Position numbers and translations under genes: made by a program
Notes under the pieces: generated by a model
What the model was told of the DNA's origin: nothing
What the model saw: the letters and a program-made list of their open reading frames with translations, nothing else
The model's database searches: none
Shown here: in pieces, positions 5,816 through 63,452 of the stretch
Numbering within the stretch: position 1 is the first letter of the stretch
Layout: each line of letters begins with the position of its first letter
DNA from: Escherichia coli
GTDB taxonomy: Bacteria; Pseudomonadota; Gammaproteobacteria; Enterobacterales; Enterobacteriaceae
DNA length: 64,000 nt
Reading direction: 5' to 3' (one strand)
Assembly: GCF_003334405.1 (NCBI RefSeq)
Contig: NZ_QOWM01000005.1

Positions 5816-5825
5816 GGTAACCTCC

Positions 5826-9366: not shown

Positions 9367-9870
<504 letters not shown>

Positions 9871-17485: not shown

Positions 17486-17660
<175 letters not shown>

Positions 17661-17776: not shown

Positions 17777-17863
17777 GCGAAGGTGGCGGAATTGGTAGAC
17801 GCGCTAGCTTCAGGTGTTAGTGTCCTTACGGACGTGGGGGTTCAAGTCCCCCCCCTCGCACCA
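17777..17863 (+). tRNA. tRNA-Leu (anticodon CAG), single copy
   Basis: 87-nt sequence gcgaaggtggcggaattggtagacgcg...ctcgcacca with encoded CCA end, long variable arm and anticodon loop cttCAGgt. Confidence 0.95.
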
Positions 17864-39265: not shown

Positions 39266-40546
39266 ATGAATAAACTCATTGAACTCAGACGCGCCAAAAT
39301 GTTGGCGCTCTCTTTACTGCTTATCGCCGCTGCTACCTTTGTCGTTACGCTGTTTTTGCCGCCCAATTTTTGGGTGAGCGGCGTGAAGGCGATTGCTGAA
39401 GCGGCGATGGTCGGCGCGCTGGCGGACTGGTTTGCGGTGGTGGCGCTGTTTCGCCGCGTGCCGATTCCGATCATTTCTCGTCATACGGCGATTATCCCGC
39501 GTAATAAAGACCGGATTGGCGAAAATCTCGGCCAGTTCGTGCAGGAAAAATTTCTCGATACCCAGTCGCTGGTGGCATTGATTCGACGTCACGAACCGGC
39601 GTTGTTGATTGGCAACTGGTTTAGTCAGCCGGAGAACGCCCGCCGCGTTGGTCAGCATCTGTTGCAGATCATGAGCGGTTTTCTTGAACTGACCGATGAT
39701 GCGCGTATTCAGCGCCTGCTTAAGCGCGCGGTCCATCGGGCGATTGATAAGGTCGATCTTTCCGGCACCAGTGCGTTGATGCTGGAGAGTATGACCAAAA
39801 ACAATCGTCATCAGGTGCTGCTGGATACGCTGATCGCACAGTTGATCGCCCTTCTCCAGCGCGATAAATCGCGCAAGTTTATTGCCCAGCAAATTGTTCG
39901 CTGGCTGGAGAGCGAGCATCCGCTGAAAGCCAAAATTTTGCCTACTGAATGGCTGGGCGAACATAGCGCGGAGTTGGTTTCTGACGCGGTGAATTCTTTG
40001 CTTGATGATATCAGCCGCGATCGTGCGCATCAGATCCGCCATGCATTTGATCGCGCCACCTTTGCCCTGATCGACAAGTTGAAAAACGATCCGGAAATGG
40101 CAGCGCGAGCCGATGCCGTAAAAAGTTATCTGAAAGAAGATGAAGCTTTTAACCGCTATCTCAGTGAATTGTGGGGGGATTTACGGGAATGGCTGAAAGC
40201 GGATATCAACAGTGAAGATTCTCGTGTGAAAGAACGTATCGCGCGGGCGGGTCAATGGTTTGGCGAAACGTTAATTGCCGATGATGCCTTGCGGGCATCG
40301 TTAAATGGTCACCTGGAACAAGCCGCGCACCGCGTCGCGCCTGAGTTTTCCGCATTCCTGACGCGCCACATCAGCGATACAGTAAAAAGCTGGGATGCTC
40401 GGGATATGTCGCGGCAAATCGAGTTAAATATCGGCAAAGATCTGCAGTTTATCCGTGTCAACGGTACGCTGGTTGGCGGTTGTATTGGGCTAATTTTATA
40501 TTTGTTGTCGCAGCTCCCGGCCTTGTTCCCCCTCAGCAATTTTTAG
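39266..40546 (+). CDS. yjiN: DUF445-family inner membrane protein YjiN
   Basis: 426-aa [34 protein letters not shown]. Confidence 0.85.
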
Positions 40547-40661
40547 AAATCCATGAAAAACTAAGTGGCTAACCGCGAGAGAGATCAAATAAACCACACT
40601 AAAAGAATGGTAATAATGTGGCCTCTTTTCATTATCTCCCGTGGTACGGGGAAGGAAAATC

Positions 40662-43769
<3,108 letters not shown>

Positions 43770-43836
43770 CAGGCTGGCATATTTCACCTTTTTGTTATTA
43801 ACTTGTTAACAACAAAAATGACATACAAGGTTAAAC

Positions 43837-45015
43837 ATGCCTTCGTCCTCGCATCCCGTAGAACGCTTTTCTTTCAGCACCGCGCTTTTCGGGATGCTGG
43901 TTCTGACCTTAGGTATGGGATTAGGTCGCTTCCTTTATACGCCTATGTTGCCCGTCATGATGGCGGAAGGGGCGTTTTCATTTAGCCAGCTCTCGTGGAT
44001 TGCCAGCGGCAACTATGCGGGGTATCTGGCTGGCAGTCTGCTATTTTCGTTTGGCGCATTTCACCAGCCGTCGCGCCTGCGCCCATTTCTGTTGGTTTCT
44101 GCCCTGGCGAGCGGGTTGTTGATCCTCGCAATGGCATGGTTGCCGCCATTTATTCTGGTGTTATTGATTCGCTTCCTGGCGGGTGTCGCCAGCGCCGGTA
44201 TGCTGATTTTTGGTTCGACGCTGATTATGCAGCACACGCGCCATCCTTTTGTGCTGGCAGCTTTGTTTTCTGGCGTTGGCATTGGCATTGCACTGGGCAA
44301 CGAATATGTTCTGGCAGGCCTGCATTTTGCCTTCTCCTCGCAAACGTTATGGCAAGGCGCCGGGGCGCTTTCTGGCATGATGCTGATTGCACTTACGCTT
44401 TTAATGCCCTCGAAAAAACACGCCATCGCACCAATGCCATTGGCAAAAACGGAGCAACAGATAATGAGCTGGTGGTTACTGGCTATTCTGTACGGCCTGG
44501 CGGGATTTGGTTATATCATCGTCGCGACTTACCTGCCGCTCATGGCGAAAGATGCAGGCTCACCATTGTTAACCGCCCATCTCTGGACGTTAGTCGGCTT
44601 ATCAATTGTGCCAGGCTGCTTTGGCTGGCTATGGGCAGCAAAACGTTGGGGGGCTTTGCCTTGCCTGACGGCGAATTTGCTGGTGCAGGCTATCAGTGTG
44701 CTGCTTACTCTCGCCAGCGACTCTCCTCTCTTGCTTATCATTAGTAGTATCGGTTTTGGCGGTACCTTTATGGGCACGACATCTCTGGTGATGACTATCG
44801 CCCGCCAACTGAGCGTTCCGGGAAATCTCAATCTTTTAGGCTTTGTGACGCTCATTTACGGCATTGGACAAATCCTCGGCCCGGCGCTGACCAGTATGCT
44901 CGGCAATGGAACATCGGCGCTTGCCAGCGCCACTCTCTGCGGCGCGGCGGCGTTGTTTATTGCTGCGCTTATCAGCACAGTGCAATTATTTAAGCTACAA
45001 GTGGTCACTTCATGA
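43837..45015 (+). CDS. yjiJ: MFS transporter YjiJ
   Basis: 392-aa multi-[37 protein letters not shown]. Confidence 0.88.
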
Positions 45016-45027
45016 GGGAAGTTTCCC

Positions 45028-45582
45028 TTACCACTCAAGAAACTCAACCGCAACCGTTGATGTCAGCCAGACCCCGTTTTCCGCTTGCCAGAAAGGGAGG
45101 CCTCGTTTCGCCATTTCCTGTGCTTTGACGGTTAAAATAACCGGCGATCCGTGTCTTGCTCCCACTTTGCGTGCCGTTGCTTCATCAGCAGAGAGATGTA
45201 CGTAGTGACGCTCACCTGCAATCAGCCCCTGTTTTTTTATCTCGTCAAGGAAACGGCTTGCCGTACCGTGGTAGAGAAACTGTGGCGGTGTTTTTTCGGC
45301 AAAGGAAATAGCGACCTGCGAAGTCGAATGCCCCTGAACCGCGCGGATGCACCTACCATCACTGGAATAACTAAAACGCTTTTTATCGCTGGTGGCAACC
45401 ACAGTATCCAGCAATGCACGGGTTAACCGCTTGCCCGCTTTTTGGGCACAAAGTATGAGCTTATCGATATCCGCCCATCCTTCACGGTCCAGTACGATAC
45501 CAATCGCCTCCGGTTTGTGTCGGAGGACAAAACTTAAAAACTTGCTCGTATCCGCCAGCTCTTTTTCGTTGTACTTTGCCAT
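45028..45582 (-). CDS. kptA: RNA 2'-phosphotransferase (Tpt1 family)
   Basis: 184-aa [32 protein letters not shown]. Confidence 0.93.
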
Positions 45583-45819
45583 CGCGTTTTCGTCCCTGGA
45601 TTATCTGTTTTTTATTTACTATGTCATTGTCACTGGGTTTATGAATTTTCTGCAACTCAATCCTGCGTAGAACCTTTTCCACACAGCGTAATTTTACCGC
45701 TATGCAAAAAACGCATAGTCAGAAACATACTTGCATTTTCCCCATACCCACATGGCTGATAAGGTTTTTCAGCTCCAGGAATTTTCCTGGCTCAAGCAAC
45801 ACACAAACACAAAAAAACA

Positions 45820-46515
45820 ATGGGGATTGTTATGACACAACAAGGGGATGCTGTAGCCGGGGAGCTGGCGACAGAAAAAGTGGGCATTAAAGGGTATCTG
45901 GCTTTTTTTCTCACCATAATCTTTTTTTCCGGTGTTTTTTCCGGGACAGACAGTTGGTGGCGCGTTTTTGATTTTTCCGTTCTGAACGGATCGTTTGGGC
46001 AACTGCCTGGTGCGAACGGAGCCACCACCTCGTTTCGCGGCGCGGGTGGCGCGGGGGCTAAAGATGGCTTTCTCTTTGCGCTGGAGCTGGCACCGTCAGT
46101 CATTCTCTCTCTGGGGATTATTTCAATTACCGATGGTCTTGGCGGATTACGCGCCGCGCAGCAGTTAATGACGCCAGTGCTAAAACCGTTGTTGGGCATT
46201 CCAGGGATCTGCTCGCTGGCGCTGATCGCTAACCTGCAAAACACCGATGCCGCCGCAGGTATGACCAAAGAGCTGGCGCAGGAAGGTGAAATTACCGAAC
46301 GCGATAAAGTGATTTTCGCCGCATATCAAACCAGCGGTAGCGCCATTATCACCAACTACTTCTCTTCCGGCGTCGCGGTGTTTGCCTTTCTGGGCACGTC
46401 CGTAATCGTACCTTTAGCAGTCATCCTGGTGTTTAAATTTGTCGGAGCCAACATTTTGCGCGTCTGGCTTAACTTCGAAGAACGTCGCAACCCAACGCAA
46501 GGAGCGCAAGCATGA
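45820..46515 (+). CDS. yjiH: nucleoside-recognition (Gate) domain membrane protein YjiH
   Basis: 231-aa ORF; exact start uncertain; overlaps yjiG start by 4 bp. Confidence 0.85.
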   Translation: MGIVMTQQGDAVAGELATEKVGIKGYLAFFLTIIFFSGVFSGTDSWWRVFDFSVLNGSFGQLPGANGATTSFRGAGGAGAKDGFLFALELAPSVILSLGIISITDGLGGLRAAQQLMTPVLKPLLGIPGICSLALIANLQNTDAAAGMTKELAQEGEITERDKVIFAAYQTSGSAIITNYFSSGVAVFAFLGTSVIVPLAVILVFKFVGANILRVWLNFEERRNPTQGAQA

Positions 46516-46973
46516 CAACTCAGGTCCGCAAAAACGTCATGGATATGTTTATCGATGGTGCGCGCCGTGGCTTTACTATCGCCACGACCAACCTGCTGCC
46601 AAACGTGGTGATGGCGTTTGTCATCATTCAGGCGCTGAAAATTACCGGCCTGCTCGACTGGGTGGGGCATATCTGTGAACCCGTAATGGCGCTGTGGGGA
46701 TTACCCGGTGAAGCGGCAACCGTCCTTTTAGCCGCATTAATGAGTATGGGTGGCGCAGTCGGTGTTGCCGCCAGTCTGGCAACCGCTGGCGCATTAACCG
46801 GTCACGATGTCACCGTTTTACTGCCCGCGATGTATTTAATGGGCAACCCGGTGCAAAATGTCGGTCGCTGCCTGGGGACAGCCGAAGTGAATGCCAAATA
46901 TTACCCGCATATCATTACGGTCTGCGTGATTAACGCATTGCTGTCGATCTGGGTTATGCAGCTTATTGTTTAA
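46512..46973 (+). CDS. yjiG: SpmB-like inner membrane protein YjiG
   Basis: 153-aa ORF MTTQVRKNVMDMFIDGARRGFTIATTNLL. Confidence 0.88.
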   Translation: MTTQVRKNVMDMFIDGARRGFTIATTNLLPNVVMAFVIIQALKITGLLDWVGHICEPVMALWGLPGEAATVLLAALMSMGGAVGVAASLATAGALTGHDVTVLLPAMYLMGNPVQNVGRCLGTAEVNAKYYPHIITVCVINALLSIWVMQLIV

Positions 46974-46985
46974 CAAGGAGTTACC

Positions 46986-48158
46986 ATGATTGATTATACC
47001 GCAGCCGGTTTTACCCTGCTGCAGGGAGCGCATTTGTATGCGCCGGAAGATCGGGGAATTTGCGATGTCCTCGTCGCTAACGGCAAAATTATCGCCGTTG
47101 CCAGTAATATCCCTTCTGACATTGTACCGGACTGCACGGTTGTCGATCTCAGCGGGCAGATCCTCTGCCCAGGTTTTATTGATCAACACGTCCATTTGAT
47201 TGGCGGTGGCGGCGAAGCAGGTCCCACGACGCGCACGCCGGAAGTGGCGTTAAGTCGTCTGACGGAAGCAGGCGTCACGTCAGTGGTTGGTCTGCTGGGC
47301 ACCGACTCTATCTCTCGCCACCCGGAATCCCTGCTCGCCAAGACCCGTGCGCTCAATGAAGAAGGCATCAGCGCCTGGATGCTGACCGGCGCTTATCATG
47401 TCCCTTCCCGCACTATTACGGGTTCCGTGGAAAAAGACGTGGCGATTATCGATCGCGTGATTGGCGTGAAATGCGCCATCTCTGATCACCGTTCTGCCGC
47501 ACCGGACGTTTATCACCTGGCTAATATGGCGGCGGAATCCCGCGTTGGCGGTTTGCTCGGCGGTAAACCTGGCGTCACCGTGTTCCACATGGGCGACAGC
47601 AAAAAGGCGTTACAGCCTGTCTATGACCTGCTGGAAAACTGCGATGTGCCGATTAGCAAGTTGCTGCCGACCCACGTTAACCGCAACGTTCCGTTGTTTG
47701 AGCAGGCGCTGGAGTTCGCGCGCAAAGGCGGCACCATCGATATCACCAGCAGCATTGACGAACCAGTCGCCCCTGCCGAAGGTATTGCCCGCGCCGTTCA
47801 GGCGGGTATTCCGCTGGCACGCGTCACCCTCAGCTCCGACGGCAACGGTAGCCAGCCGTTCTTCGATGACGAAGGGAATTTAACCCATATCGGTGTTGCC
47901 GGTTTTGAAACGTTGCTGGAAACCGTGCAGGTGCTGGTCAAAGATTATGATTTCAGTATCAGCGATGCCCTGCGCCCGCTCACCAGTAGCGTAGCCGGTT
48001 TCCTTAACCTGAGCGGGAAAGGCGAAATTCTGCCAGGCAATGACGCAGACTTACTGGTCATGACGCCAGAATTACGCATTGAGCAGGTATACGCTCGCGG
48101 CAAGCTGATGGTCAAAGACGGCAAAGCCTGCGTGAAAGGAACGTTTGAAACGGCATAA
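46986..48158 (+). CDS. iadA: isoaspartyl dipeptidase
   Basis: 390-aa amidohydrolase ORF with CPGFIDQHVHLIGGGGE. Confidence 0.95.
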   Translation: MIDYTAAGFTLLQGAHLYAPEDRGICDVLVANGKIIAVASNIPSDIVPDCTVVDLSGQILCPGFIDQHVHLIGGGGEAGPTTRTPEVALSRLTEAGVTSVVGLLGTDSISRHPESLLAKTRALNEEGISAWMLTGAYHVPSRTITGSVEKDVAIIDRVIGVKCAISDHRSAAPDVYHLANMAAESRVGGLLGGKPGVTVFHMGDSKKALQPVYDLLENCDVPISKLLPTHVNRNVPLFEQALEFARKGGTIDITSSIDEPVAPAEGIARAVQAGIPLARVTLSSDGNGSQPFFDDEGNLTHIGVAGFETLLETVQVLVKDYDFSISDALRPLTSSVAGFLNLSGKGEILPGNDADLLVMTPELRIEQVYARGKLMVKDGKACVKGTFETA

Positions 48159-48222
48159 ACGGTTGTCAGCCGCCCGAATGGACGTAGAATGCCCGCAAGG
48201 GCGGCTGACAGAGTAAAACGTA

Positions 48223-49134
48223 ATGGATGACTGTGGTGCGGTTTTGCATAATATTGAAACTAAATGGCTTTATGATTTTCTGACCCTGGAAAAATGCCGC
48301 AATTTTTCCCAGGCAGCAGTCAGTCGCAACGTCTCGCAACCGGCATTCAGCCGCCGCATCCGTGCGCTGGAACAGGCGATTGGCGTTGAATTGTTTAACC
48401 GCCAGGTGACGCCGCTGCAACTCTCGGAACAAGGTAAAATATTCCATTCGCAGATCCGCCATCTGTTGCAACAGTTAGAGAGCAACCTTGCAGAACTCCG
48501 TGGTGGCAGCGATTACGCGCAACGCAAAATTAAAATAGCCGCTGCACACTCTCTTTCCCTCGGGCTGTTACCGTCCATTATCAGCCAGATGCCGCCGCTC
48601 TTTACCTGGGCAATTGAAGCTATTGATGTCGATGAAGCGGTCGATAAACTGCGTGAAGGGCAAAGTGACTGTATTTTTTCCTTTCACGACGAAGATTTGC
48701 TGGAAGCGCCGTTTGACCACATTCGCTTATTTGAATCTCAATTGTTCCCTGTCTGCGCCAGTGACGAACACGGAGAAGCACTTTTTAACCTCGCGCAGCC
48801 ACACTTTCCGTTACTGAATTACAGCCGCAACTCCTACATGGGGCGATTGATTAATCGCACCCTGACGCGCCACAGTGAGTTAAGTTTCAGCACCTTTTTT
48901 GTCTCTTCGATGAGCGAGCTTTTAAAGCAGGTTGCCCTCGACGGCTGTGGGATTGCCTGGCTGCCGGAGTACGCCATCCAACAAGAAATTCGCAGCGGGC
49001 AGCTCGTTGTACTGAATCGGGACGAACTGGTGATCCCGATTCAGGCCTATGCATACCGAATGAATACCCGCATGAATCCAGTTGCCGAACGCTTCTGGCG
49101 TGAACTGCGCGAGCTGGAGATTGTACTTAGCTGA
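48223..49134 (+). CDS. hypT: LysR-family hypochlorite-responsive regulator HypT (YjiE)
   Basis: 303-aa ORF with N-terminal LysR HTH. Confidence 0.9.
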
Positions 49135-49519
49135 CATTCTCGAGCGTCGCACTACGCCAACCGCCATTATCCCAGACCAGATCAAACGTTAGCGGTTCAT
49201 CGTCGTGGTACAGCATTATCTCAAGGCTGATCGCCAGCGTGTGGCTGTACGCTTCTTTCAGATTGACCTGCAACGCCGCAATCCGTGGCTCATGAAATAA
49301 CAGTGCAGAACGCAGCTGACGGCAATACCAGCTCTGGAGATGTTTGTCGCTCTGGTTATGCACTTGCCACTCGGGCATGCCTGAAACAAGTAATGACGGT
49401 AATGCCGAATGAGGAGAATTAAAAAGAGTGAGGAGATCGCTACATATTGATTTACGCAGCGATGACGTTTTATTGCCTGAAATTTCAGGTAAAACAGCCT
49501 GACGTGATTGGCGCATCAT
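49127..49519 (-). CDS. iraD: anti-adaptor protein IraD (RssB inhibitor)
   Basis: 130-aa product [30 protein letters not shown]; overlaps hypT 3' end by 8 bp. Confidence 0.9.
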
Positions 49520-50191
49520 TTTGCGCACTCCTGACGTTTAGCAACATATGCGGCTTGCCCTGAACACCGGGCACCACTGTATTGATGCTCATTTTCCATA
49601 GCCATTCCCTTTTGTTCATTACATCCATGTCAGTCTGAGACAGGCCTGAATCCTGTCAGCAAAGTATAAAACCTTACTTGCCTATGAATATCTACTGACT
49701 TTTCAGGAAAAAAGTCATGATTTGATAAAAATCATCAAACTCAAAAAAAAACCGCTAGTATATTCTGAATATTCCGAATAGTTACGTAGATGAAAATACT
49801 TGTCACCACCGCTACTTAATTCCGGTGTGAAATTATTTATTTCCGCATAATCAGCCATGTATTATTTGAAACAATTAGTTTGTAAATAATATAAATTGAT
49901 AACATATCAAATACATCAAAAATACCATTCACAGGCATTATTAATATAGACATCAATATAGCAACATCAAATTCCAATTAGTAATAAGATATGCTTTTAA
50001 ATTGCATGAAAATAATTTCAAATGAGCGTTTTTTGATACTTTAGAGTGTTTCCTACCCTTTAATATCACCGTGTAGAGTTGATATCACTACAACAGAAAC
50101 ATGCATGTCATTTGTTTACTTCTCATTTTACTACAGAAAAATTTATCTATTTTTCTAAACATCAGTGAAATACTCATAAAAGGTAACTATT

Positions 50192-51022
50192 ATGTCTATG
50201 CCATTAAGCAATACCCTTCAGAGCCAAATTATTACAGATAATCACTTCCTTCATCATCCAAAAGTCGACAGTGAGTTAACACGTAAATATGAACGTGCAC
50301 GCCTGGATACGGAAAATATCTATCTTCTGCCTCTTGCTCGTGGCAATAACCATAATTACGATGGAAAAAGCGTTGTCGAAATTAGAAAACTTGATATTAG
50401 TAAAGAGTCCTGGCCATTTAATTATGTGACAGAAGCATGCAGAGAATCCGATGGTATTACAACAACAGGACGTATGCTCTATCGAAACTTGAAAATCACC
50501 TCAGCTTTAGACGAAATATATGGTGGCATATGTAAAAAGGCGCATGCTGCTACAGAATTAGCAGAAGGTTTACGGCTAAATTTATTTATGAAGAGCCCTT
50601 TCGATCCTGTTGAGGACTATACAGTTCATGAAATAACATTAGGCCCTGGTTGCAATGTTCCAGGTTACGCCGGAACCACGATAGGATATATTTCAACCCT
50701 TCCAGTTTCTCAGGCAAAAAGATGGACCAATGAGCAGCCAAGAATTGATATCTATATTGATCAGATAATAACTGTCTCAGGGGTAGCAAATTCTTCCGGA
50801 TTCGCCCTTGCCGCATTACTTAATGCTAATATTGAGATGGGAAATGACCCAATCATTGGTATAGAAGCCTATCCTGGTACCGCGGAGATCCATGCAAAAA
50901 TGGGATATAAAGTTATCCCCGGTGATGAAGATGCGCCACTCAAACGCATGACTCTGCAACCGTCATCTCTTCCAGAACTGTTTGAATTAAAAAATGGTGA
51001 ATGGAATTATATTGGTAAATAG
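50192..51022 (+). CDS. yjiC: uncharacterised protein YjiC (276 aa) on an AT-rich islet
   Basis: ORF MSMPLSNTLQSQIITDNHFLHHPKVDSELTRKYERARLDTENIYLLPLARG preceded by about 660 bp of AT-rich non-coding DNA. Confidence 0.85.
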   Translation: MSMPLSNTLQSQIITDNHFLHHPKVDSELTRKYERARLDTENIYLLPLARGNNHNYDGKSVVEIRKLDISKESWPFNYVTEACRESDGITTTGRMLYRNLKITSALDEIYGGICKKAHAATELAEGLRLNLFMKSPFDPVEDYTVHEITLGPGCNVPGYAGTTIGYISTLPVSQAKRWTNEQPRIDIYIDQIITVSGVANSSGFALAALLNANIEMGNDPIIGIEAYPGTAEIHAKMGYKVIPGDEDAPLKRMTLQPSSLPELFELKNGEWNYIGK

Positions 51023-51122
51023 CAACTGAGAAGAATGAGTACTAATATTCAGGTTATACAGATATTTAAACAATACCCTGCAATTTACAAAGCAATACTC
51101 ATTGCGACTTCTTAATTTAAGA

Positions 51123-51151
51123 AAGCGCAAGGAACGTTTACCCTTGCGCTT
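51123..51151. terminator. hairpin between convergent yjiC and uxuR
   Basis: agcgcaagg-aacgtttac-ccttgcgct flanked by A/T-rich runs. Confidence 0.5.
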
Positions 51152-51162
51152 ATTATAATAAG

Positions 51163-51936
51163 TCAGACGTCGACTTTATCCAGCGGCCATGAATCAAACA
51201 GATAGCCGTCAAAATAAATATCGTCAACGTTCGAGAATTCCAGCAGACGTTGCTTAACGTTTTCCAGATGCTGCCACATTGCCAGCTTCGCCGCTCGGGC
51301 ATCTTTTTTGATTAACGCGGCGAGGATCTGTTTGTGATCGCCCAACCACTCTTTGCGATACAGGCTGTCATCCAGATGGCTGTGCAACTGGATCCACATT
51401 GGATTGTTTTCCCGCCACTGCCAGGACTGACGGAATAACTCCACCAGCATGCTGTTATGCGTTGCTTCGGCAATGGCGAGATGGAACTGCATATCACCGC
51501 TTTCGCTGCTACCCGGCGCGCTGGAAGCCAGTTCACGCTCTTCCAGTTGCAATGCCTGACGCATTTTGACGATATCTTCGCGGGTAGCCTGCAAAGCGGC
51601 AAATTCCGCGATGTTACTTTCCAGTAACTGACGCGCCTGTAACAGCTCAAAAGGACCCGCATCATTACAGACGTTGGCATCCGAACTGTCTGTGTTGTGG
51701 CTGCCTGAGCTATCAAGAACATAGATACCGGCACCCCGGCGCACTTCCACCAGCCCTTTGATCTCCAGCATGATCAGCGCTTCACGTACCACCGTCCGCG
51801 TGACATCAAGCATTTCTGCAATTTCACGCTCCGGCGGCAGCCGTTCGCCAGGATTGTACGGCGTCTTTATGATCAGATCGCGGATCATCGCCCCGACTTC
51901 CTGGTAAGGTCTTTGCGCAGAGGTGGCAGATTTCAT
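51163..51936 (-). CDS. uxuR: GntR-family repressor of hexuronate utilisation
   Basis: 257-aa ORF MKSATSAQRPYQEVGAMIRDLIIKTPYNPGERLPPEREIAEMLDVTRTVVREAL. Confidence 0.95.
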   Translation of the reverse strand: MKSATSAQRPYQEVGAMIRDLIIKTPYNPGERLPPEREIAEMLDVTRTVVREALIMLEIKGLVEVRRGAGIYVLDSSGSHNTDSSDANVCNDAGPFELLQARQLLESNIAEFAALQATREDIVKMRQALQLEERELASSAPGSSESGDMQFHLAIAEATHNSMLVELFRQSWQWRENNPMWIQLHSHLDDSLYRKEWLGDHKQILAALIKKDARAAKLAMWQHLENVKQRLLEFSNVDDIYFDGYLFDSWPLDKVDV

Positions 51937-51962
51937 GGTGTTGTGTCCGTTAGGTGCGGTTA

Positions 51963-52020
51963 ATCAAATTTTTGCCGGATGCGGCGTGAACGCCTTATCC
52001 GGCCTACAACGGGCAATTTT
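51963..52020. repeat. REP element between uxuR and uxuB
   Basis: tgccggatgcggcgtgaacgccttatccggcctac. Confidence 0.75.
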
Positions 52021-52150
52021 ACGGCCCCTGTTAATCTCAAACTATACCATTAGCACTGGAAGTTGGCACGTACAGGTGGGCAAAAAAACGAAAACTGGTC
52101 AACCAAATATCAGTTTGATTGACCAGTAAGTCTGTAGGGTAATCAGTTAG

Positions 52151-53611
52151 TTACAGCGCAGCCACACACTCGCGCGCACCGCGTTCGCACAGCTGCTGAT
52201 ATGCCGCCGTCACCGCGCCAACAAAGTCGGCATTCTGCGGCAGATCATCGGCAAAAATACCGCTCAGGCCTAGCAGCGCTTTCACGCGGTCTGCGCCCTG
52301 ATACTGCGCGTTAATCTTCTGGAACTCGGCCAGCATCGGGTCGACCACGTCAATGGCATTACCCTGCTCATCCACGCCCTGGGTGTAACGCATCCAGCCA
52401 GCCACGCCCAGCGCCAGGTGACGCCAGCTGCCGCCGTTTTGCAGGTGCAGACGCACCGGGTCCAGCAGACGCTGCGGTAACTTCTGGCTGCCGTCCATCG
52501 CAATCTGCCAGGTACGGTGACGCAGAGACGGGTTGCTGAAACGCTCGATCAGCAGCGTCGCATAGGCGTTCAGGTCCGTACCTTCCGGCATCGACAGCGT
52601 TGGCGCTTGTTCCTGCATCATCAGGGCAAAGGCCGCTTTGCGATAATCCGGGTTAGTCATGGTGTCGGCAATAGTTTCATAGCCGCCGAGGTAACCGAGG
52701 TACGCCAGGAAAGAGTGGCTACCGTTCAGCATACGCAGCTTCATCATTTCGAACGGCACAACGTCTGCAACGAACTGTGCGCCCACTTTATCCCAGTCCG
52801 GGCGACCATTAACGAAATTATCTTCAATCACCCACTGACGGAACGGTTCGCAGGCAATGGCGCACGGGTCGTAAACGCCCAGCTGGTCAGCAATTTCCTG
52901 TAAGGTTTCTGGCGTCGCCGCCGGAACGATGCGGTCAACCATGGTGCACGGGAAGGTGACGTTCTCTTCAATCCATGCCGCTAGCTGCGGGTCACGCGCC
53001 TGAGCCAGCCCCAGTACCGCGACCTTCGCCACATGACCGTTTTCACGCACGTTATCGCAGGACATCACCGTAAATGCTTTCAGCCCTTTTTCACGACGCA
53101 GACGCAAGGCTTCGACGATGTAACCAATCGCGGACTTCGGCGCAGTCGGGTTTTCCAGATCGTGCTTGATCAGCGGGTTATTGAGATCCAGTTGACCGCT
53201 TGCCGCATCAGCGCAGTAGCCTTTTTCCGTGACCGTCAGAGAGACAATCGCCGTTTGCGGACGCGCCATCGCGTTGAGAATACCTTCGCAGCCGTCGATT
53301 TCCGGGTGCAGCGCTTCTTTCATCGAACCGATAATTTTCAGCTCGGTGCTTTCCGCGCCTTTTTCCGCCACGGTGTACAGCAGTTGCTGTTTTTTCAGGT
53401 TTTCGATCAGCACGCGGTCGTTGCCTGGCATCAGGTTAACTTCGCAGATACCCCAGTCGCTGTCGGTGCTTTCCAGCAGATGATGGGTGTACAGCGCCTG
53501 GTGCGCACGGTGAAACGCCCCGCAACCGAGATGCACAATGCGTGATTCCAGACGAGAATGATCCCATGACGGGCGGGCAACCGGCAGATTGCTGTCAACA
53601 ATAGTAGTCAT
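52151..53611 (-). CDS. uxuB: D-mannonate oxidoreductase (fructuronate reductase)
   Basis: 486-aa ORF MTTIVDSNLPVARPSWDHSRLESRIVHLGCGAFHRAHQ. Confidence 0.95.
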   Translation of the reverse strand: MTTIVDSNLPVARPSWDHSRLESRIVHLGCGAFHRAHQALYTHHLLESTDSDWGICEVNLMPGNDRVLIENLKKQQLLYTVAEKGAESTELKIIGSMKEALHPEIDGCEGILNAMARPQTAIVSLTVTEKGYCADAASGQLDLNNPLIKHDLENPTAPKSAIGYIVEALRLRREKGLKAFTVMSCDNVRENGHVAKVAVLGLAQARDPQLAAWIEENVTFPCTMVDRIVPAATPETLQEIADQLGVYDPCAIACEPFRQWVIEDNFVNGRPDWDKVGAQFVADVVPFEMMKLRMLNGSHSFLAYLGYLGGYETIADTMTNPDYRKAAFALMMQEQAPTLSMPEGTDLNAYATLLIERFSNPSLRHRTWQIAMDGSQKLPQRLLDPVRLHLQNGGSWRHLALGVAGWMRYTQGVDEQGNAIDVVDPMLAEFQKINAQYQGADRVKALLGLSGIFADDLPQNADFVGAVTAAYQQLCERGARECVAAL

Positions 53612-53691
53612 CGTAAACTCCAGAATCCGTCTTCAGAGAGTGACGGCAAGGAAGAAGGAACCGGCACGGCGCGCAGCCATGCCGGTGGATA

Positions 53692-54876
53692 TTAACGGCT
53701 AAAGAAAGCGCGCTGGATCGCCAGTTCGACACCGCGAACTTCGGCCAGGCCTTTCAGACGACCAATTGCGGAGTAACCTGGGTTGGTTTTCTTCTTCAGG
53801 TCGTCCAGCATCTGATGACCGTGGTCCGGACGCATCGGGATCAGGTCTTCTTTGCCTTCCGCTTTACGACGGTGTTCTTCTTCAACAATCGCTTTCACCA
53901 CTTCGTACATATCAACGTCACCGTTCAGGTGCGCCGCTTCGTGGAAGGTTTTCGGGTTATCTTCACGCATGGTGGAGCGCAGATGGGTGAAGTAAATACG
54001 CGGACCGAACTGCTTGATCATATCAACCAGATCGTTGTCAGCACGCACGCCGTAGGAACCGGTGCACATGGTGAAACCGTTCGCCATGCTATTTACGGTA
54101 TCAACCATCCACTGCATATCTTCAATGGTAGAAACAATGCGCGGCAGGCCGAGGATTGGGCGCGGCGGATCGTCCGGGTGAACAGCCATACGCACGCCAA
54201 CTTCTTCGGCAACCGGAATAATCGCCTTCAGGAAGACGGCAAAGTTTTCGCGCAGTTTGGCTTTGTCGATATCTTTGTACAGCTCCAGGTGCTTACGGAA
54301 CTGGTCGAGGGTGTACCCTTCTTCCGCGCCCGGCAGACCGGCAATGATGTTACGGGTCAGACGCGCTTTGTCTTCGTCGCTCATAGTGGCGAAGCGTTCA
54401 GCTGCCTGAGCAATTTCTTCTTCGGTGTAATCCGCTTCCGCACCTGGGCGTTTCAGGATATGCATTTCGAATGCAGCGAATTCGATCTGGTCGAAGCGCA
54501 GAGCTTTGGAGCCGTCTGGCAGCACGTATTCGAGGTCAGTACGGGTCCAGTCGAGCACCGGCATGAAGTTGTAGCACACGGTGCGAATACCGCACTGCGC
54601 CAGGTTGCGCAGAGTCTGCTGATAGTTAGCGATCCACTGCTCATAGTTGCCAGTGTGGGTTTTGATATCTTCGTGAATTGGCACGCTTTCTACGACAGAC
54701 CACACCAGGCCTGCATCTTCAACGATAGCCTTGCGTTTGAGGATCTCTTCTACGGACCATACTTCACCGTTCGGGATATGGTGCAAAGCGGTAACCACGC
54801 CAGTCGCGCCCGCCTGACGGACATCAGCTAAAGAAACCGGATCGTTTGGGCCGTACCAGCGCCAGGTCTGTTCCAT
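53692..54876 (-). CDS. uxuA: D-mannonate dehydratase
   Basis: 394-aa product from ATG 54876 ([23 protein letters not shown]); track ORF extends to 54912. Confidence 0.96.
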
Positions 54877-55215
54877 GATTTTTCCTCTTTCACATAGTGG
54901 GTTCCACAGCAAAGAGACGCGGAACCCTGGAGTTGTTTAGGTATCCGGATGAACAACCAGACCGCAGCCGTGGCGTTGCATCGGATGAGATGGCGTATAA
55001 GTTCTACCTTTTGGTAAGACATGTCAACCCGAATTCTGAAATTGGTTAACCACATCACAAGAATTTCACTCTCCTGGTTGTTGCTGCAAATTGCAGCAAA
55101 AGGTAATCGATGGTTATTGATCAGAGGATGTGACATTCATCGCAACAATGGTTGACCAATTTACATAACATGTCGCCCAAAATAACAACGGTTCAACCAG
55201 GTAAGGTAAAACGTT

Positions 55216-56559
55216 ATGCATGTGCTTAACATTCTCTGGGTGGTATTCGGCATTGGTCTGATGCTGGTACTGAATTTGAAGTTCAAAATCAATTCAATGG
55301 TGGCCTTGTTGGTGGCGGCGCTGTCCGTCGGGATGCTGGCGGGCATGGATTTGATGTCGCTGCTGCACACCATGAAAGCGGGCTTCGGCAACACGCTGGG
55401 GGAACTGGCTATCATCGTGGTGTTCGGTGCGGTCATCGGTAAATTGATGGTCGACTCCGGCGCGGCTCACCAGATAGCGCATACGCTGCTGGCACGTCTC
55501 GGTCTGCGTTATGTACAGCTGTCGGTGATTATCATCGGCCTGATTTTCGGTCTGGCGATGTTCTATGAAGTGGCCTTTATCATGTTAGCACCGCTGGTTA
55601 TTGTTATTGCCGCCGAAGCTAAAATTCCGTTCCTGAAACTGGCGATCCCGGCAGTAGCAGCTGCCACTACCGCACATTCACTGTTCCCACCGCAGCCGGG
55701 TCCGGTGGCGCTGGTGAATGCTTATGGCGCGGATATGGGGATGGTTTATATCTATGGCGTACTGGTGACGATCCCAAGTGTCATCTGCGCAGGTCTGATC
55801 CTGCCGAAGTTCCTCGGCAATCTTGAGCGCCCAACGCCATCATTCCTGAAAGCAGATCAACCGGTAGATATGAATAATCTGCCCTCTTTCGGCGTTTCGA
55901 TTCTGGTGCCGTTGATCCCGGCGATCATTATGATCTCTACCACCATCGCCAATATCTGGCTGGTAAAAGATACCCCTGCGTGGGAAGTGGTTAACTTTAT
56001 CGGTTCCTCGCCGATTGCAATGTTTATTGCGATGGTGGTTGCATTCGTACTCTTTGGCACCGCGCGCGGGCACGATATGCAGTGGGTAATGAACGCTTTT
56101 GAAAGCGCGGTGAAAAGCATTGCAATGGTGATTCTGATCATCGGTGCAGGTGGCGTGCTGAAGCAGACCATCATCGACACCGGCATCGGCGACACCATCG
56201 GCATGCTGATGTCCCACGGCAATATCTCGCCCTACATCATGGCATGGCTGATCACCGTACTGATTCGTCTGGCGACGGGTCAGGGTGTGGTTTCAGCGAT
56301 GACCGCCGCCGGGATTATCAGTGCAGCAATCCTTGATCCAGCAACTGGTCAGCTGGTTGGCGTGAATCCGGCGCTGCTGGTACTGGCGACGGCTGCGGGT
56401 TCCAACACCCTCACCCACATTAACGATGCCTCATTCTGGTTGTTCAAAGGTTACTTTGACCTGTCAGTAAAAGACACGTTGAAAACCTGGGGTCTGCTGG
56501 AGCTGGTCAACTCCGTGGTTGGGCTGATTATTGTGCTGATTATTAGCATGGTAGCGTAA
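55216..56559 (+). CDS. gntP: GntP-family permease (fructuronate/gluconate transporter)
   Basis: 447-aa multi-[28 protein letters not shown]; divergent from uxuA. Confidence 0.93.
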
Positions 56560-56570
56560 AAGAGCACCTG

Positions 56571-56690
56571 AGCCTGCCATTGGCAGGCTCTGTTCGGATT
56601 GTCGGTAAAGTGCGCTTTGTTTATGCCAGATGCGACGCTGACGCGTCTTATCTGGCCTACAAAGGGCTAACGTGCAGGTTTTAGCTTCAG
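56571..56690. repeat. terminator hairpin plus REP-like palindromes between gntP and fimH
   Basis: agcctgccattggcaggct hairpin, then gatgcgacgctgacgcgtcttatctggcctac. Confidence 0.6.
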
Positions 56691-56731
56691 GTAATATTGC
56701 GTACCTGCATTAGCAATGCCCTGTGATTTCT

Positions 56732-57634
56732 TTATTGATAAACAAAAGTCACGGCAATAATCGATTGCACATTCCCTGCAGTCACCTGCCCTCCGGTACG
56801 TGCGTAATTTGCCGTTAATCCCAGACTTACCGCCGAAGTCCCTACTGCTCCTAACGATACCGTGTTATTCGCTGGAATAATCGTACCGTTGCGCGTCAAC
56901 TGTACGCCGACGCCCTGTGCAGGTGAAAACGACGCGGTATTGGTGAAAATCGAGTTGCCCGCATCTGCGGTTGTGCCGGAGAGGTAATACCCCAGGTTTT
57001 GGCTTTTCGCACAATAAACGGTAAGAGGAATCGGCACTGAACCAGGGTAGTCCGGCAGAGTAACGGTGACATCACGAGCAGAAACATCGCAGCCGCCAGT
57101 GGGCACCACCACATCATTATTGGCGTAAATATTCCACACAAACTGGAAATCATCGCTGTTATAGTTGTTGGTCTGTCGCAAAATAAGCACGGCAATTAAT
57201 GAGCCAGCTTTAATCACCACCCCGCCCGCACTGCTCACAGGCGTCAAATAAAGCGCCACCGGCCACGGCTTATCCGTTCTCGAATTATAAACAACCCGCG
57301 GCGTTTCACTGGTGGTCGGAAATGGATAGCTACTGCCACTATATTTTACGGTCCCGGAAAAATTAGATAACACGCCGCCATAAGCCGAGCCTCGTTGCAG
57401 TGTGACATAATCTGTAATGGTTTCCGGGTAATCGTTATGGCAAAAGATTTGCGTCGAAAGATCCACGACCAGGTTTTGCCCCACATTCACGGCGGGCGCA
57501 AGGTTTACATAAACATTGGCGCTGCCACCGCCAATAGGGATAGCGGTGCCATTGGCGGTTTTACAGGCGAATGACCAGGCATTTACCGACCAGCCCATCA
57601 GCAGTACAGCAAACAGGTTAATAACTCGTTTCAT
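56732..57634 (-). CDS. fimH: type 1 fimbrial adhesin (mannose-binding tip)
   Basis: 300-aa product MKRVINLFAVLLMGWSVNAWSFACKTANGTAIPIGGG. Confidence 0.97.
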   Translation of the reverse strand: MKRVINLFAVLLMGWSVNAWSFACKTANGTAIPIGGGSANVYVNLAPAVNVGQNLVVDLSTQIFCHNDYPETITDYVTLQRGSAYGGVLSNFSGTVKYSGSSYPFPTTSETPRVVYNSRTDKPWPVALYLTPVSSAGGVVIKAGSLIAVLILRQTNNYNSDDFQFVWNIYANNDVVVPTGGCDVSARDVTVTLPDYPGSVPIPLTVYCAKSQNLGYYLSGTTADAGNSIFTNTASFSPAQGVGVQLTRNGTIIPANNTVSLGAVGTSAVSLGLTANYARTGGQVTAGNVQSIIAVTFVYQ

Positions 57635-57653
57635 TACAATCATCTCTTCGGCT

Positions 57654-58157
57654 TCAGCTGTAGGTATAGGTGATGCTAATCACTGCCTGAATGGTTCCCT
57701 GAGTGGCTCCGCCATTTACCGTCAATGCTCTGACCTGTAACGGGAAGTGCGCTGATTGTGAGGAATCATCCACCTGAACTGTTTTGGTTGCGCCACTATT
57801 CAATGTGTTGCCACTGTCATCCTGTAGCTCTAACTGGATGTTTTGCGCGGTCCCCTGGTTTTTATAATATCCGGTACTGTCGGCTGCCCCGCTGAAGCTG
57901 GCAGTGACCCTCGACGTTCCCACCGGACAATTAGTCAACTCAAGCGCAACATCATGCCAGGCCGATGCCGCCCCGGCAGACATCAGACTGAAAGAATAAA
58001 GATCGCCGAGATCTACCGTGGCATTGGTGGTGGAAACCGTGCACGGTTTGGCGACGACCTTACCGTTCACCGTGATGGTGACATCGGCTGCCTGTATCGT
58101 CGCACTTGCGAGCGCCAATATTGCCGCCAATACATACCCACGTTTGCACCATTTCAT
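57654..58157 (-). CDS. fimG: type 1 fimbrial minor subunit FimG
   Basis: 167-aa ORF MKWCKRGYVLAAILALASATIQAADVTITVNGKVVAKPCTV. Confidence 0.95.
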   Translation of the reverse strand: MKWCKRGYVLAAILALASATIQAADVTITVNGKVVAKPCTVSTTNATVDLGDLYSFSLMSAGAASAWHDVALELTNCPVGTSRVTASFSGAADSTGYYKNQGTAQNIQLELQDDSGNTLNSGATKTVQVDDSSQSAHFPLQVRALTVNGGATQGTIQAVISITYTYS

Positions 58158-58169
58158 GAGCCTCTCCAG

Positions 58170-58700
58170 TTACTGATATTCAAGAGTGAAGGTAGCCGTG
58201 GCATTGATATGCCCCGCAGTGACAGGCACCTGTGTCGCCATTAGCCGGGCGTAAAAATTCAGCGTATTTGGTTTACCCGGCGTCAGGGTCGTCCACGAAA
58301 TCGCGGACGATGGGGCATTAATGGGTATCTGATTTTGTTGCTCATTCAGAAGCTGTATTCCCAGTCCCGCAACCGCTGACACCGTATTTTCAAGTGCAAG
58401 CAGGTTGGCATTGTGGCTATCTGCAACACCGGTAAACCCAACTTTTACGGCAGAAACGGCATTACCACAGGGTGACAGCAAAATACGAAATGGAACGACA
58501 GGAGTCGTCGCGCCAATGTTGTTAAATTGCTTCGCCGCGTTTTCCATCAGATCAACAGTAAAATTGGTTGATTCAGCGGCCACACTACAGCCGTTATCTC
58601 TGACATAGCCGCGGATAGTAATCGTGCTATCCGCAGCCAAAGCGTGACTTACCGCCAGCCACAAAAAAGCGCACAGAAGATAAAAAGGTTTGTTTCTCAT
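58170..58700 (-). CDS. fimF: type 1 fimbrial minor subunit FimF
   Basis: 176-aa product [33 protein letters not shown]. Confidence 0.95.
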
Positions 58701-58709
58701 CACGCCCCC

Positions 58710-62778: not shown

Positions 62779-63333
62779 TTATTGATACTGAACCTTGAAG
62801 GTCGCATCCGCATTAGCAGCACCCGGGGTTGCCTCGCCGATTGCATAATAACGCGCCTGGAACGGAATGGTGTTGGTACCGTTATTCAGGGTTGTTTGTG
62901 CACTAAATGTCGCACCGTCCAGCGTCAGCTCATTTCCTGTTCTGTCCAGTATCTGCACACCAACATTTGTTGCGCTACCCGCAGCTGAACTCTGCAGAGC
63001 CAGTACTTTAGGATGAGCACTGTCAATCGCAGTCCCCAAGAAGGCAACAGCGGCTTTTGTGGCAACACTGGTATCGCAATCATTCAGCTGAATGTTAAAA
63101 CCGACAGCAGAGCTGGTTGCTCCAGTCTGCTTCAGACTAGCGGTACGAACCTGGCCCAACTGAACGGTTTGATCAACAGATCCTGCATCAACTGCGCAAG
63201 CGGCGTTAACAACTTCCCCTTTAAAGTGAACGGTCCCACCATTTACCGTCGTGGGTGTAGTTTCAGCCAGAGCCGCTGTAGAACTCAGGGACAGAGCCGA
63301 CAGAACAACAATTGCCAGAGTTTTAATTTTCAT
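62779..63333 (-). CDS. fimA: type 1 fimbrial major subunit (a non-K-12 allele)
   Basis: 184-aa [51 protein letters not shown]; RBS aaaggaaagc. Confidence 0.95.
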
Positions 63334-63452
63334 ACTGCTTTCCTTTCAAAAAACTATTTCTAAATCGACATGGGCAGTCGTTCCGTACACTTTGTTTTGT
63401 CAACGAGTTTGACTGCCAACACTGCACAGTTTCCCCCCAAAAGATGAAACAT

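Follow-up and report, generated by a model that had tools for sequence, protein, structure and literature searches.

In the 64-kb stretch of Escherichia coli DNA analysed here (the window), yjiC is located between iraD and uxuR, and RefSeq annotates idlP, ytiD and ytiC as additional genes at the same locus (Table 1). The iraD product is an anti-adaptor which stabilises RpoS; the 3' end of the gene and the end of hypT share 8 bp. A Shine-Dalgarno-like AAGG is found 8 nt upstream of yjiC. Of 5426 complete E. coli genomes, 4886 contain DNA that matches the locus at 100% to 96%.

Table 1. Features of the iraD-yjiC-uxuR locus (positions are those of the window)
Feature	Position	Strand	Basis or remark
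iraD	49127..49519	-	NCBIfam NF010726, E 4.2e-89; RefSeq annotation
idlP, 27-aa iraD leader peptide	49516..49599	-	RefSeq annotation, translation
iraD-yjiC divergent spacer	49520..50191		672 bp, 32.0% GC
DnaA box TTTTCCATA	49592..49600	+	Sequence; Sass et al.
iraD promoter P2	49656..49668	-	TSS published, hexamer read from sequence
ytiD (ORF47), 47-aa small protein within P1 transcript	49715..49858	-	RefSeq annotation
HusR (YnfL) binding sequence CCGCTAGTATATTCTG	49752..49767	+	gSELEX table, sequence
Truly variable segment	49790..51162		1373 bp, 35.5% GC; alignment A1, loci L002 and L012
ytiC, 33 aa as annotated in K-12	49837..49938	-	RefSeq annotation
iraD promoter P1	49936..49970	-	TSS published, hexamers from promoter scan and sequence
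yjiC, 276 aa, Pfam DUF2686	50192..51022	+	ORF, Pfam, structure prediction
Hairpin AAGCGCAAGG-9 nt-CCTTGCGCTT	51123..51151		10-bp perfect stem

A preliminary description of this DNA had taken positions 49530-50190 for a long non-coding leader of yjiC without a credible ORF. Neither part of that claim was supported, as idlP, ytiD and ytiC are annotated in this interval and all three are reported to be translated, and the 672-bp spacer is the dissected control region of iraD. The suggestion that the opposite strand carries the iraD promoter region agrees with the literature, since P1 and P2 map to the minus strand. Transcription start sites at -417 and -137, together with a fusion comprising the 672 bp, have been published (Sass et al., bioRxiv 10.1101/2021.05.20.444958). 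The P1 start site (-417) maps to 49936, downstream of a -35 hexamer TTGATG (49970-49965) and a -10 hexamer TATATT (49948-49943) separated by a 16-nt spacer; the P2 start site (-137) maps to an A at 49656, with TATACT (49668-49663) as the -10 hexamer. Both start sites thus lie 7 nt past a -10-like hexamer in this window. The DnaA box, reported at -81 from the iraD ATG (same source), overlaps the start codon of idlP. The HusR sequence is listed in a gSELEX table (PMC12844172), and a conserved palindrome, TATTCTGAATATTCCGAATA, at 49761-49780 (I3) adjoins it.

The stop codon of idlP overlaps the iraD start (ATGA), which leads to CsrA-controlled translational coupling of the two genes, the leader RNA bearing CsrA sites (Park et al. 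2017, PMC5574718). The element found here is the same, with a 27-aa idlP and the ATGA overlap; it belongs to iraD and not to yjiC, and does not differ in substance from the one published. A lacZ fusion to ytiD (ORF47) is reported to be expressed, as is a fusion to ORF23, which probably corresponds to a 22-aa version of ytiC starting from the internal ATG at 49905; detection of SPA-tagged ytiC has been published under the name ytiB. Searches against Rfam gave two sub-threshold chance matches in 48500-52000 at E<=1, and at the gathering score no match inside the region when the whole window was scanned. Within the RpoS network, the AT-rich spacer is one of the better-studied control regions.

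Compared with K-12, the spacer shows 99.0% nucleotide identity without indels, which exceeds every flanking gene (95.1% for yjiC, 97-98% for the neighbouring genes) and makes it the best-conserved part of the locus. Its proximal part (49520-49789, 39.3% GC) is conserved genus-wide, its distal part (49790-50191, 27.1% GC) within E. coli only. The proximal 270 bp are kept in E. albertii, in which ytiC and ytiD are not conserved as ORFs, and even in the single yjiC-less E. coli genome that was examined, which carries the ibeA island and in which about 150 bp of unrelated sequence replace the variable segment. The DNA that truly varies is about 49790-51162 and not the 49530-51160 first given to the AT-rich islet.

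With respect to base composition, the preliminary description was borne out. The GC content of 49530-50190 is 31.8%, as compared to 51.2% for the window, and falls to 27.2% in the core at 49700-50191; yjiC itself has 40.1% GC and the whole block 49530-51160 has 36.1%. The yjiC region is the stretch of lowest GC content in the window, about 4 standard deviations below the mean of sliding windows of the same size (mean 0.513, sd 0.036-0.048), and the two spacers flanking yjiC rank lowest among the 29 gaps in the window. Codon usage of yjiC was likewise found to be atypical: its GC3 of 0.307 is the lowest of the 54 ORFs in the window (mean 0.579, sd 0.074), and its CAI of 0.21, based on the weights of Sharp & Li, is the third lowest. 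As in xenogeneic islets, both GC content and codon usage of the yjiC region are far from those of the host.

The hairpin between yjiC and uxuR, located 11 nt beyond the stop codon of uxuR and 100 nt beyond that of yjiC, had been termed bidirectional. Both strands give a strong, perfect stem, with z about -3.8 to -3.9. Bidirectionality was not confirmed: the tail is modest on the minus strand (UCUUAAAUU) and poor on the plus strand (AUUAUAAUAA), and the terminator scan called the hairpin on neither strand. It lies inside the variable segment, and another hairpin takes its place in locus L002. Probably it is the terminator of uxuR.

Panyukov & Ozoline (2013) described the yjiC/iraD spacer as a "promoter island" overlapping a predicted genomic island and associated it with genes predicted to be foreign. 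According to that report, which cites the ChIP-chip sets of Kahramanoglou (2011) and Oshima (2006), the spacer is bound by H-NS. The association with H-NS proposed for this DNA is therefore corroborated, as far as this secondary citation goes. Since both H-NS binding and the predicted foreign origin of the spacer were already in print, the first reading is largely right but not new. The spacer, itself listed among the H-NS-bound promoter islands, resembles them in being very AT-rich and in adjoining a gene restricted to one lineage. It differs from them in that much of it is the productive, highly conserved control region of iraD, and in that neither mobility signatures nor an excess of promoter-like sites over shuffled sequences were found. 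In Shigella, induction of yjiC goes together with that of virulence-plasmid genes and of fimB/fimE, which we read as typical of H-NS-controlled genes. Induction by AZT has been reported to reach 260-fold for ytiC, 33-fold for ytiD, 14-fold for iraD and 11-fold for yjiC; as AZT does not globally relieve silencing by H-NS, something else may underlie the 11-fold increase of yjiC.

No tRNA gene is present within 40000-60000, no terminal repeats flank yjiC apart from short matches at chance level, and neither an integrase gene nor direct or inverted terminal repeats that would mark a mobile-element island were found at yjiC. An inverted pair of 16 nt (88%) at 49758-49773 and 51044-51059 was judged to be due to chance, because its left arm lies in DNA that is also present in the yjiC-less genome. 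A tblastn search of a phage collection gave no match to YjiC. Nine records of a plasmid collection matched, all of them E. coli entries with lengths from 373 kb to 4.9 Mb; they are probably chromosomal DNA filed as plasmids. No donor for the low-GC segment was found, and given this and the lack of mobility signatures, horizontal acquisition is unproven. Of the earlier proposal of horizontal acquisition, composition, restricted distribution, the presence/absence pattern and the published predictions speak in its favour, while the absence of tRNA genes and terminal repeats does not, and recent acquisition is contradicted by synteny: in E. albertii, where the product is 62% identical in amino acid sequence, and in divergent lineages, yjiC is likewise flanked by iraD and uxuR, indicating long residence. 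The low GC content would reflect either import long ago from an AT-rich source or a young origin specific to the lineage.

YjiC had been regarded as assignable to no family; the protein is in fact a full-length match to Pfam DUF2686 (PF10887; YjfZ/YjiC family), residues 1-276 covering model positions 1-285 of 285 (E 4.5e-153), and has a paralogue, YjfZ (b4204), which is 41% identical over 226 residues. NCBIfam contains no family for YjiC, YtiD or IdlP, and PADLOC and PHROGs yielded no match. YjfZ shares DUF2686 and the same predicted fold with YjiC, and its gene is AT-rich too (42.4% GC, GC3 0.37), but it is encoded at another locus (rplI-ytfA) and is reported as a conserved signature of E. 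coli and Shigella, whereas about 10% of genomes lack yjiC, whose alleles diverge strongly. One of the two E. coli DUF2686 proteins is in use as a diagnostic marker specific for E. coli. Searches of two libraries, which hold 5.8 and 1.84 billion proteins, detected DUF2686 only in Escherichia/Shigella-type sequences; two further matches, to repeat proteins, were judged spurious.

Among the 5426 complete E. coli genomes, yjiC is absent from 530, and 4882 carry a full-length or almost full-length ORF. Within E. coli, YjiC alleles with 64% amino acid identity occur where the flanking proteins are 96-100% identical. Truncated forms of 229-262 aa, including a 257-aa form in Shigella, are common, and IS1 insertions occur in or near the gene in some genomes. 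With dN of 0.19-0.26 and dN/dS of 0.31-0.54, as compared to dN/dS of 0.007-0.28 for its neighbours, yjiC evolves far faster than the genes around it; purifying selection on the gene is real, though relaxed, and yjiC is highly variable between strains and dispensable.

For YjiC residues ~60-276, a GNAT-like fold was predicted, preceded by about 50 N-terminal residues predicted to be disordered. The predicted model shows the GNAT core topology b1-a1-a2-b2-b3-b4-a3-b5-a4-b6(-b7) and similarity to solved GNAT structures. Confidence of the models is low overall, with mean pLDDT values of 53.8 and 56.5 obtained from alignments of only 12-14 closely related sequences; the C-terminal half alone reaches 66-90. 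GNAT motif A (Q/R-x-x-G-x-G/A) binds the pyrophosphate of CoA. The residues N200-S-S-G203-F-A205 at the predicted b4-a3 junction, placed by eye rather than from a printed structural alignment, fit this motif except for Asn in place of Gln/Arg. N200, G203 and F204, but not A205, are invariant in an alignment of five sequences including YjfZ, and the invariant DUF2686 residues cluster in b4-a3, the predicted cofactor site. H233 of YjiC corresponds to Y in YjfZ.

YjiC lacks the sequence-profile matches of established GNATs such as SpeG, PaiA, AAC(6')-Ib, the N-terminal domain of DfoC, and TacT/AtaT: at E<=10 no Pfam domain besides DUF2686 and no GNAT (Acetyltransf_*) profile matched, and sequence searches of the PDB with YjiC alone or with the family profile gave no meaningful match. 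It further differs from GNATs by its disordered N-terminus, a 25-residue insert between a1 and a2, and the Asn in motif A. From the predicted structure we infer that YjiC may be a highly diverged acyl-CoA N-acyltransferase of the GNAT fold. A type II GNAT toxin (TacT/AtaT/KacT) was considered and rejected because yjiC, unlike the TacT/AtaT toxins, has no antitoxin-like partner gene beside it; no annotated or conserved small ORF forms an operon with yjiC, and PADLOC found no match. Among the papers searched, none names yjiC together with yjfZ or with GNAT.

We consider it likely that this DNA is the annotated yjiC-iraD locus of E. coli, a low-GC, Escherichia-restricted and long-resident segment which combines iraD control, a divergent yjiC and the uxuR hairpin. 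On the minus strand, the spacer acts as the iraD control region, with P1, P2, the DnaA box, the HusR and CsrA sites and the three translated small ORFs, of which idlP couples repression by CsrA to translation of iraD; these steps have been shown in the literature and are here mapped onto the window. yjiC would be transcribed separately and divergently from iraD, and the hairpin would mainly mark the end of uxuR. Judging from the published ChIP-chip data as cited by Panyukov & Ozoline, H-NS would coat the AT-rich DNA and hold yjiC and stray promoters quiet, and replication stress, as caused by AZT, would induce the whole divergent unit.

The low GC content might alternatively not be a mark of transfer at all, if DUF2686 genes and small ORFs alike originated or diverged where they now lie, in AT-rich regulatory DNA of the Escherichia lineage, and if selection for the function of promoters and nucleoid proteins has maintained the AT-richness. 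The lack of any homologue outside Escherichia among billions of proteins, the AT-richness of both paralogues, the ytiC and ytiD ORFs not being conserved in E. albertii, and the extreme conservation of the spacer within E. coli are consistent with such an origin. The complete predicted GNAT-like topology with motif A, however, would point to an origin within an ancient superfamily and not to emergence from non-coding DNA, and regulatory selection leaves a GC3 of 0.31 across 276 codons unexplained, so that we regard an origin in place as possible but unlikely.

To read the 660 bp as a long non-coding 5' leader of yjiC, within a recently imported, H-NS-silenced islet at 49530-51160, seems distinctly improbable. 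With a promoter-like site on the plus strand at 49896-49923, the 5' UTR of yjiC would be about 260 nt long, and an islet would account for the low GC content, the atypical codon usage of yjiC, the reported H-NS binding and the tenth or so of genomes without the gene. Yet iraD P1 and P2 lie in the spacer, along with three minus-strand ORFs that are translated, and a simple hexamer scan found 6 promoter-like sites in the region versus 7.4 expected in composition-matched shuffles, i.e. no excess. An islet of this extent is at odds with the proximal 270 bp being retained in the yjiC-less genome and in E. albertii, and recent import with the syntenic, 62% identical yjiC of E. albertii and with the lack of flanking tRNA genes or terminal repeats. 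That yjiC is a decaying, functionless remnant, whose GNAT-like prediction has no present-day meaning, is very unlikely despite its absence from 530 genomes, the common truncated forms, the IS1 insertions and the high amino acid divergence, as dN/dS is 0.31-0.54 in every comparison, the ORF is (nearly) full-length in 4882 genomes and retained in E. albertii, invariant residues cluster in the predicted cofactor site, and expression rises 11-fold with AZT.

Being annotated in K-12, with H-NS binding and predicted foreign origin in print, the locus carries little weight as a discovery. It does illustrate that, within a locus, conservation and density of function can be highest in a very AT-rich, seemingly empty stretch. 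In addition, both DUF2686 proteins of E. coli now have a testable biochemical hypothesis, namely that they are GNAT-type acyltransferases. It is conceivable, albeit doubtful, that DUF2686 (YjiC/YjfZ) represents an unrecognised, genus-restricted branch of GNAT acyltransferases whose fast protein evolution, replacement of alleles within E. coli and joint induction with iraD upon replication stress reflect a role in conflict or stress. If this were true, they might for example modify a target belonging to a phage, the host or a competitor, or else an amine of the cell in DNA-damage tolerance.

The stretch is part of the E. coli chromosome, in reversed orientation relative to MG1655. Of 5426 complete E. 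coli genomes, 5404 match nucleotides 49400-51200, and 4886 do so across 80% or more of this interval. The AT-richness that a preliminary description ascribed to yjiC and its surroundings, and the contrast to the neighbouring genes, are well beyond chance as judged by sliding-window GC, GC3 and codon adaptation index (CAI). At 36.1% GC, as compared to 51.2% for the window, the yjiC region as a whole is the most AT-rich stretch in the 64 kb, about 4 sd under sliding windows of the same size. GC contents are 31.8% for 49530-50190 (27.2% in the core, 49700-50191), 40.1% for yjiC, and 32.9% for the yjiC–uxuR gap, while iadA (56%), hypT (51%) and uxuR (53%) are ordinary. Of the 29 gaps in the window, none is as low in GC as the two on either side of yjiC. 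The GC3 of yjiC (0.307) is the lowest among 54 long ORFs (mean 0.579, sd 0.074) and its CAI of 0.21 the third lowest; its codons include 7 ATA, 4 AGA and 7 GGA. GC3 and the window-internal measures are independent of the CAI weights (Sharp & Li). Two other low-GC stretches of the window (about 32–35% GC) lie at 20100-20900, where a 555-bp divergent spacer (20466-21020) is flanked by two ORFs of 45% GC (19105-20465), and at 63200-63500.

The AT-rich sequence between yjiC and iraD (49520-50191, 672 bp) had been described as a leader of yjiC devoid of credible ORFs, which is wrong on both counts: idlP, ytiD and ytiC are annotated and reported to be translated, and the spacer is the dissected control region of iraD, with two promoters, a DnaA box and CsrA sites. 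The same description had correctly placed the iraD promoter region on the opposite strand, where both P1 and P2 map. Transcription from P1, starting at −417 relative to the iraD ATG, is induced as cells enter stationary phase, and P2 (−137) is active in all growth phases; both are ppGpp-responsive and induced by the replication-stress inducer AZT (Sass et al., bioRxiv 10.1101/2021.05.20.444958). The same authors reported a DnaA box, TTTTCCATA, at −81, binding of purified DnaA to the iraD control fragment with a Kd of 42 nM, and modulation of iraD expression by SspA. The leader RNA carries four CsrA sites and three translated ORFs, of which the 27-aa ORF now named idlP overlaps the iraD start and transmits CsrA repression by translational coupling, whereas ORF47 (ytiD) and ORF23 (the shorter version of ytiC), although expressed, leave iraD unaffected (Park et al. 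2017, PMC5574718). YtiC, under its then-name YtiB, was detected by chromosomal SPA tagging. Gene positions were transferred from the RefSeq and MG1655 annotations, and agree with the ORF list and translations.

Features of the hypT–uxuB region and mapped sites in the iraD control region
Feature	Position	Strand	Basis
hypT	48223-49134	+	annotation transfer
iraD	49127-49519	-	annotation transfer
idlP	49516-49599	-	annotation transfer
DnaA box	49592-49600		sequence match to published box
P2 start	49656	-	published start mapped; 7 nt after -10-like TATACT (49668-49663)
ytiD	49715-49858	-	annotation transfer
HusR (YnfL) gSELEX site CCGCTAGTATATTCTG	49752-49767		PMC12844172 and sequence
ytiC	49837-49938	-	annotation transfer
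P1 start	49936	-	published start mapped; 7 nt after -10-like TATATT (49948-49943)
yjiC	50192-51022	+	annotation transfer
uxuR	51163-51936	-	annotation transfer
uxuB	52151-53611	-	annotation transfer

The ATG of the annotated 33-aa ytiC (49936-49938) coincides with the published P1 start. The P1 transcript could thus encode only a 22-aa YtiC (internal ATG at 49905), or else would be a leaderless mRNA if it started 2 nt upstream; in many RefSeq genomes, only the short form is annotated. An overlapping palindrome, TATTCTGAATATTCCGAATA (49761-49780), adjoins the HusR site about 105–125 bp upstream of P2; since both E. albertii and the yjiC-less allele largely retain it, it looks like a candidate regulator site. 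At the other end of iraD, the convergent hypT and iraD genes share 8 bp at their 3' ends (49127-49134), leaving no room for a terminator between them. No Rfam family matched the region. The spacer is rich in functional elements, and the function is that of iraD, which fits its conservation: it is 99.0% identical to that of K-12 without a single indel, as compared to 97–98% for the flanking genes. The least conserved part of the locus is yjiC, with 95.1% nucleotide identity and 19 of 276 residues differing; population-level identities agree with this comparison.

The proposal that the islet is horizontally acquired and probably H-NS-silenced largely holds as far as its foreign-looking, reportedly H-NS-bound character is concerned; horizontal transfer is plausible. 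This character was already published for exactly this spacer, listed as a 526-bp “promoter island” (yjiC(−)/iraD(+)) overlapping a GIST-predicted genomic island (Panyukov & Ozoline 2013). The table of that paper associates the island with genes that Nakamura et al. and Lawrence et al. had predicted to be foreign, and relays its binding by H-NS from two data sets, those of Kahramanoglou (MG1655) and of Oshima (W3110). Our hexamer scan found 6 promoter-like sites, as compared to 7.4 in composition-matched shuffles; by this measure, base composition accounts for the “island” character. In Shigella flexneri exposed to RNA polymerase inhibitors, yjiC was co-induced with virulence-plasmid genes, fimB and fimE, which we read as a pattern typical of H-NS-controlled genes. 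In a published expression study, ytiC was the gene most induced by AZT in the genome (260-fold), followed within the locus by ytiD (33-fold), idlP (18-fold), iraD (14-fold) and yjiC (11-fold), all independently of LexA. In that study AZT did not globally relieve H-NS silencing, so the response of yjiC may stem from something other than H-NS relief.

YjiC had been considered unassignable to any family; it is, in fact, a full-length member of Pfam DUF2686 (PF10887; E = 4.5e-153), named “YjfZ/YjiC family protein” in RefSeq. Its sole paralogue, YjfZ, is 41% identical and likewise encoded by an AT-rich gene (42.4% GC, GC3 0.37). Apart from two repeat-protein matches in the HMMER search (P0056, P0059), which look like low-complexity noise, searches of 5.8 billion proteins (word index) and 1.84 billion representatives (exhaustive HMMER) yielded Escherichia- and Shigella-type sequences and fragments only. 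Matches from the plasmid collection lie on records between 373 kb and 4.9 Mb long, which probably represent misfiled chromosomal DNA. No match was found in phages, PADLOC, PHROGs or NCBIfam, nor in PDB sequences, family profile included.

The AlphaFold2 models of YjiC and YjfZ, which derive from shallow alignments, have mean pLDDT values of 53.8 (66–90 in the C-terminal half) and 56.5, respectively. In both, some 50 disordered N-terminal residues precede b1-a1-a2-b2-b3-b4-a3-b5-a4-b6-b7, an order of elements that is the same as in GNATs. Foldseek searches of AFDB50 with the YjiC model (428 matches at E ≤ 1e-3) ranked DUF2686 proteins first, Xenorhabdus “N-acetyltransferases” next (E about 3e-7) and generic GNATs after them; the YjfZ model matched PaiA, SpeG and AAC(6')-Ib in the PDB (E = 1e-5 to 3e-4; 91 matches at E ≤ 1e-3). 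The Xenorhabdus cluster (205–241 aa, E about 3e-7 to 5e-6, ranks 17–28) comprises the closest structural neighbours outside DUF2686, and may hint at a donor lineage or at the nearest relatives. Invariant residues of DUF2686 concentrate in b4-a3 (I185, D186, Y188, I189, T194, V195, G197, V198, N200, G203, F204, A207–A212), where N200-S-S-G203-F-A205 resembles the CoA-pyrophosphate motif Q/R-x-x-G-x-G/A of GNATs; I-H-x-x-x-G-Y in a4 (I-Y-S-G-L-G-F in YjfZ) resembles the GNAT motif Y-x-x-x-G-F. DUF2686 is thus most likely a strongly diverged GNAT-fold family, as predicted from models of low overall confidence; a Pfam search of YjiC gave no sequence-profile support for the link, and our literature search retrieved no paper connecting yjiC to GNATs.

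A yjiC gene also lies between iraD and uxuR in E. albertii (62% amino acid identity), in a divergent Escherichia metagenome lineage (70%), and in GCA_009799345.1, labelled E. coli (64%), with spacers of 654–672 bp and 31–32% GC. Synteny in E. albertii implies that yjiC predates the E. coli/E. albertii split, and its GC content has not drifted toward that of the host. Its dN (0.19–0.26) far exceeds that of iadA, uxuR, uxuB and uxuA (0.001–0.025), and its dN/dS is 0.31–0.54 versus 0.007–0.28 for the neighbours; yjiC is coding and constrained, though loosely. In GCA_009799345.1, the flanks are at within-species distance (dS 0.01–0.09), the IraD, UxuR, UxuB and UxuA proteins being 96–100% identical (IraD 96%, UxuR 99%), whereas yjiC (5001-5831 of locus L009) has a dS of 0.48, an allelic replacement confined to yjiC.

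Within E. coli, yjiC is present in 4896 of the 5426 genomes at 90–100% nucleotide identity, nine genomes carry alleles of only 60–80% identity, and truncated forms and IS1 insertions occur. IS1 copies interrupt the iraD–yjiC–uxuR interval in several strains (H1, H11, H12, H22, H26, H38), lying within the AT-rich spacer in H26 and splitting yjiC in H38. The gene is missing from about 530 genomes. In the one of these that was examined (L002/L012), 49790-51162 is replaced by about 150 bp of unrelated sequence that includes another hairpin, and homology restarts exactly at the uxuR stop codon; the truly variable segment is thus about 49790-51162 (1373 bp, 35.5% GC), containing P1, ytiC, the start of ytiD, yjiC and the hairpin. 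Across the genus, the proximal 270 bp of the spacer (P2, leader, idlP) are conserved. The IraD allele of this genome is only 76% identical to the common allele and 84% to that of E. albertii, and its iraD is separated from hypT by the ibeA island, which we take to be the island known as GimA. This block of about 20 kb, within locus L012 (NZ_CP039403.1, 712000-735000), includes ptsP-like, dhaKL, gcl, hyi, glycerate kinase, dhaR, ibeA and nhaC genes.

Neither a tRNA, an integrase nor a convincing terminal repeat was found at the locus. Since yjiC is old in the lineage, horizontal acquisition of the segment is plausible at most as an old event. That yjiC instead arose in-lineage within AT-rich DNA seems less likely, as the full GNAT topology of the model argues against birth from non-coding sequence.

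The hairpin at 51123-51151, previously described as bidirectional, does form a strong stem on both strands (perfect 10 bp, z about −3.8 on each), but its tails are somewhat U-rich on the minus strand only, and it was not among the calls of the terminator scan. It lies 11 nt past the uxuR stop and 100 nt past that of yjiC; we regard it as the terminator of uxuR. Between uxuR and uxuB lies a weak, cut-off naRNA4 match (51959-52000). Elsewhere in the window, four tandem naRNA4 (REP/BIME-type) repeats about 101 bp apart (9404-9785), a further one (17555-17637) and a tRNA gene (17777-17860, +) score above the Rfam gathering threshold.

Beyond what was already known, the analysis adds the predicted fold-level assignment of DUF2686 to GNAT acyltransferases and a description of how yjiC evolves: it is a fast-evolving, recombining, dispensable gene limited to one genus. 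There is a modest chance that YjiC and YjfZ represent an interesting lineage-specific acyltransferase.
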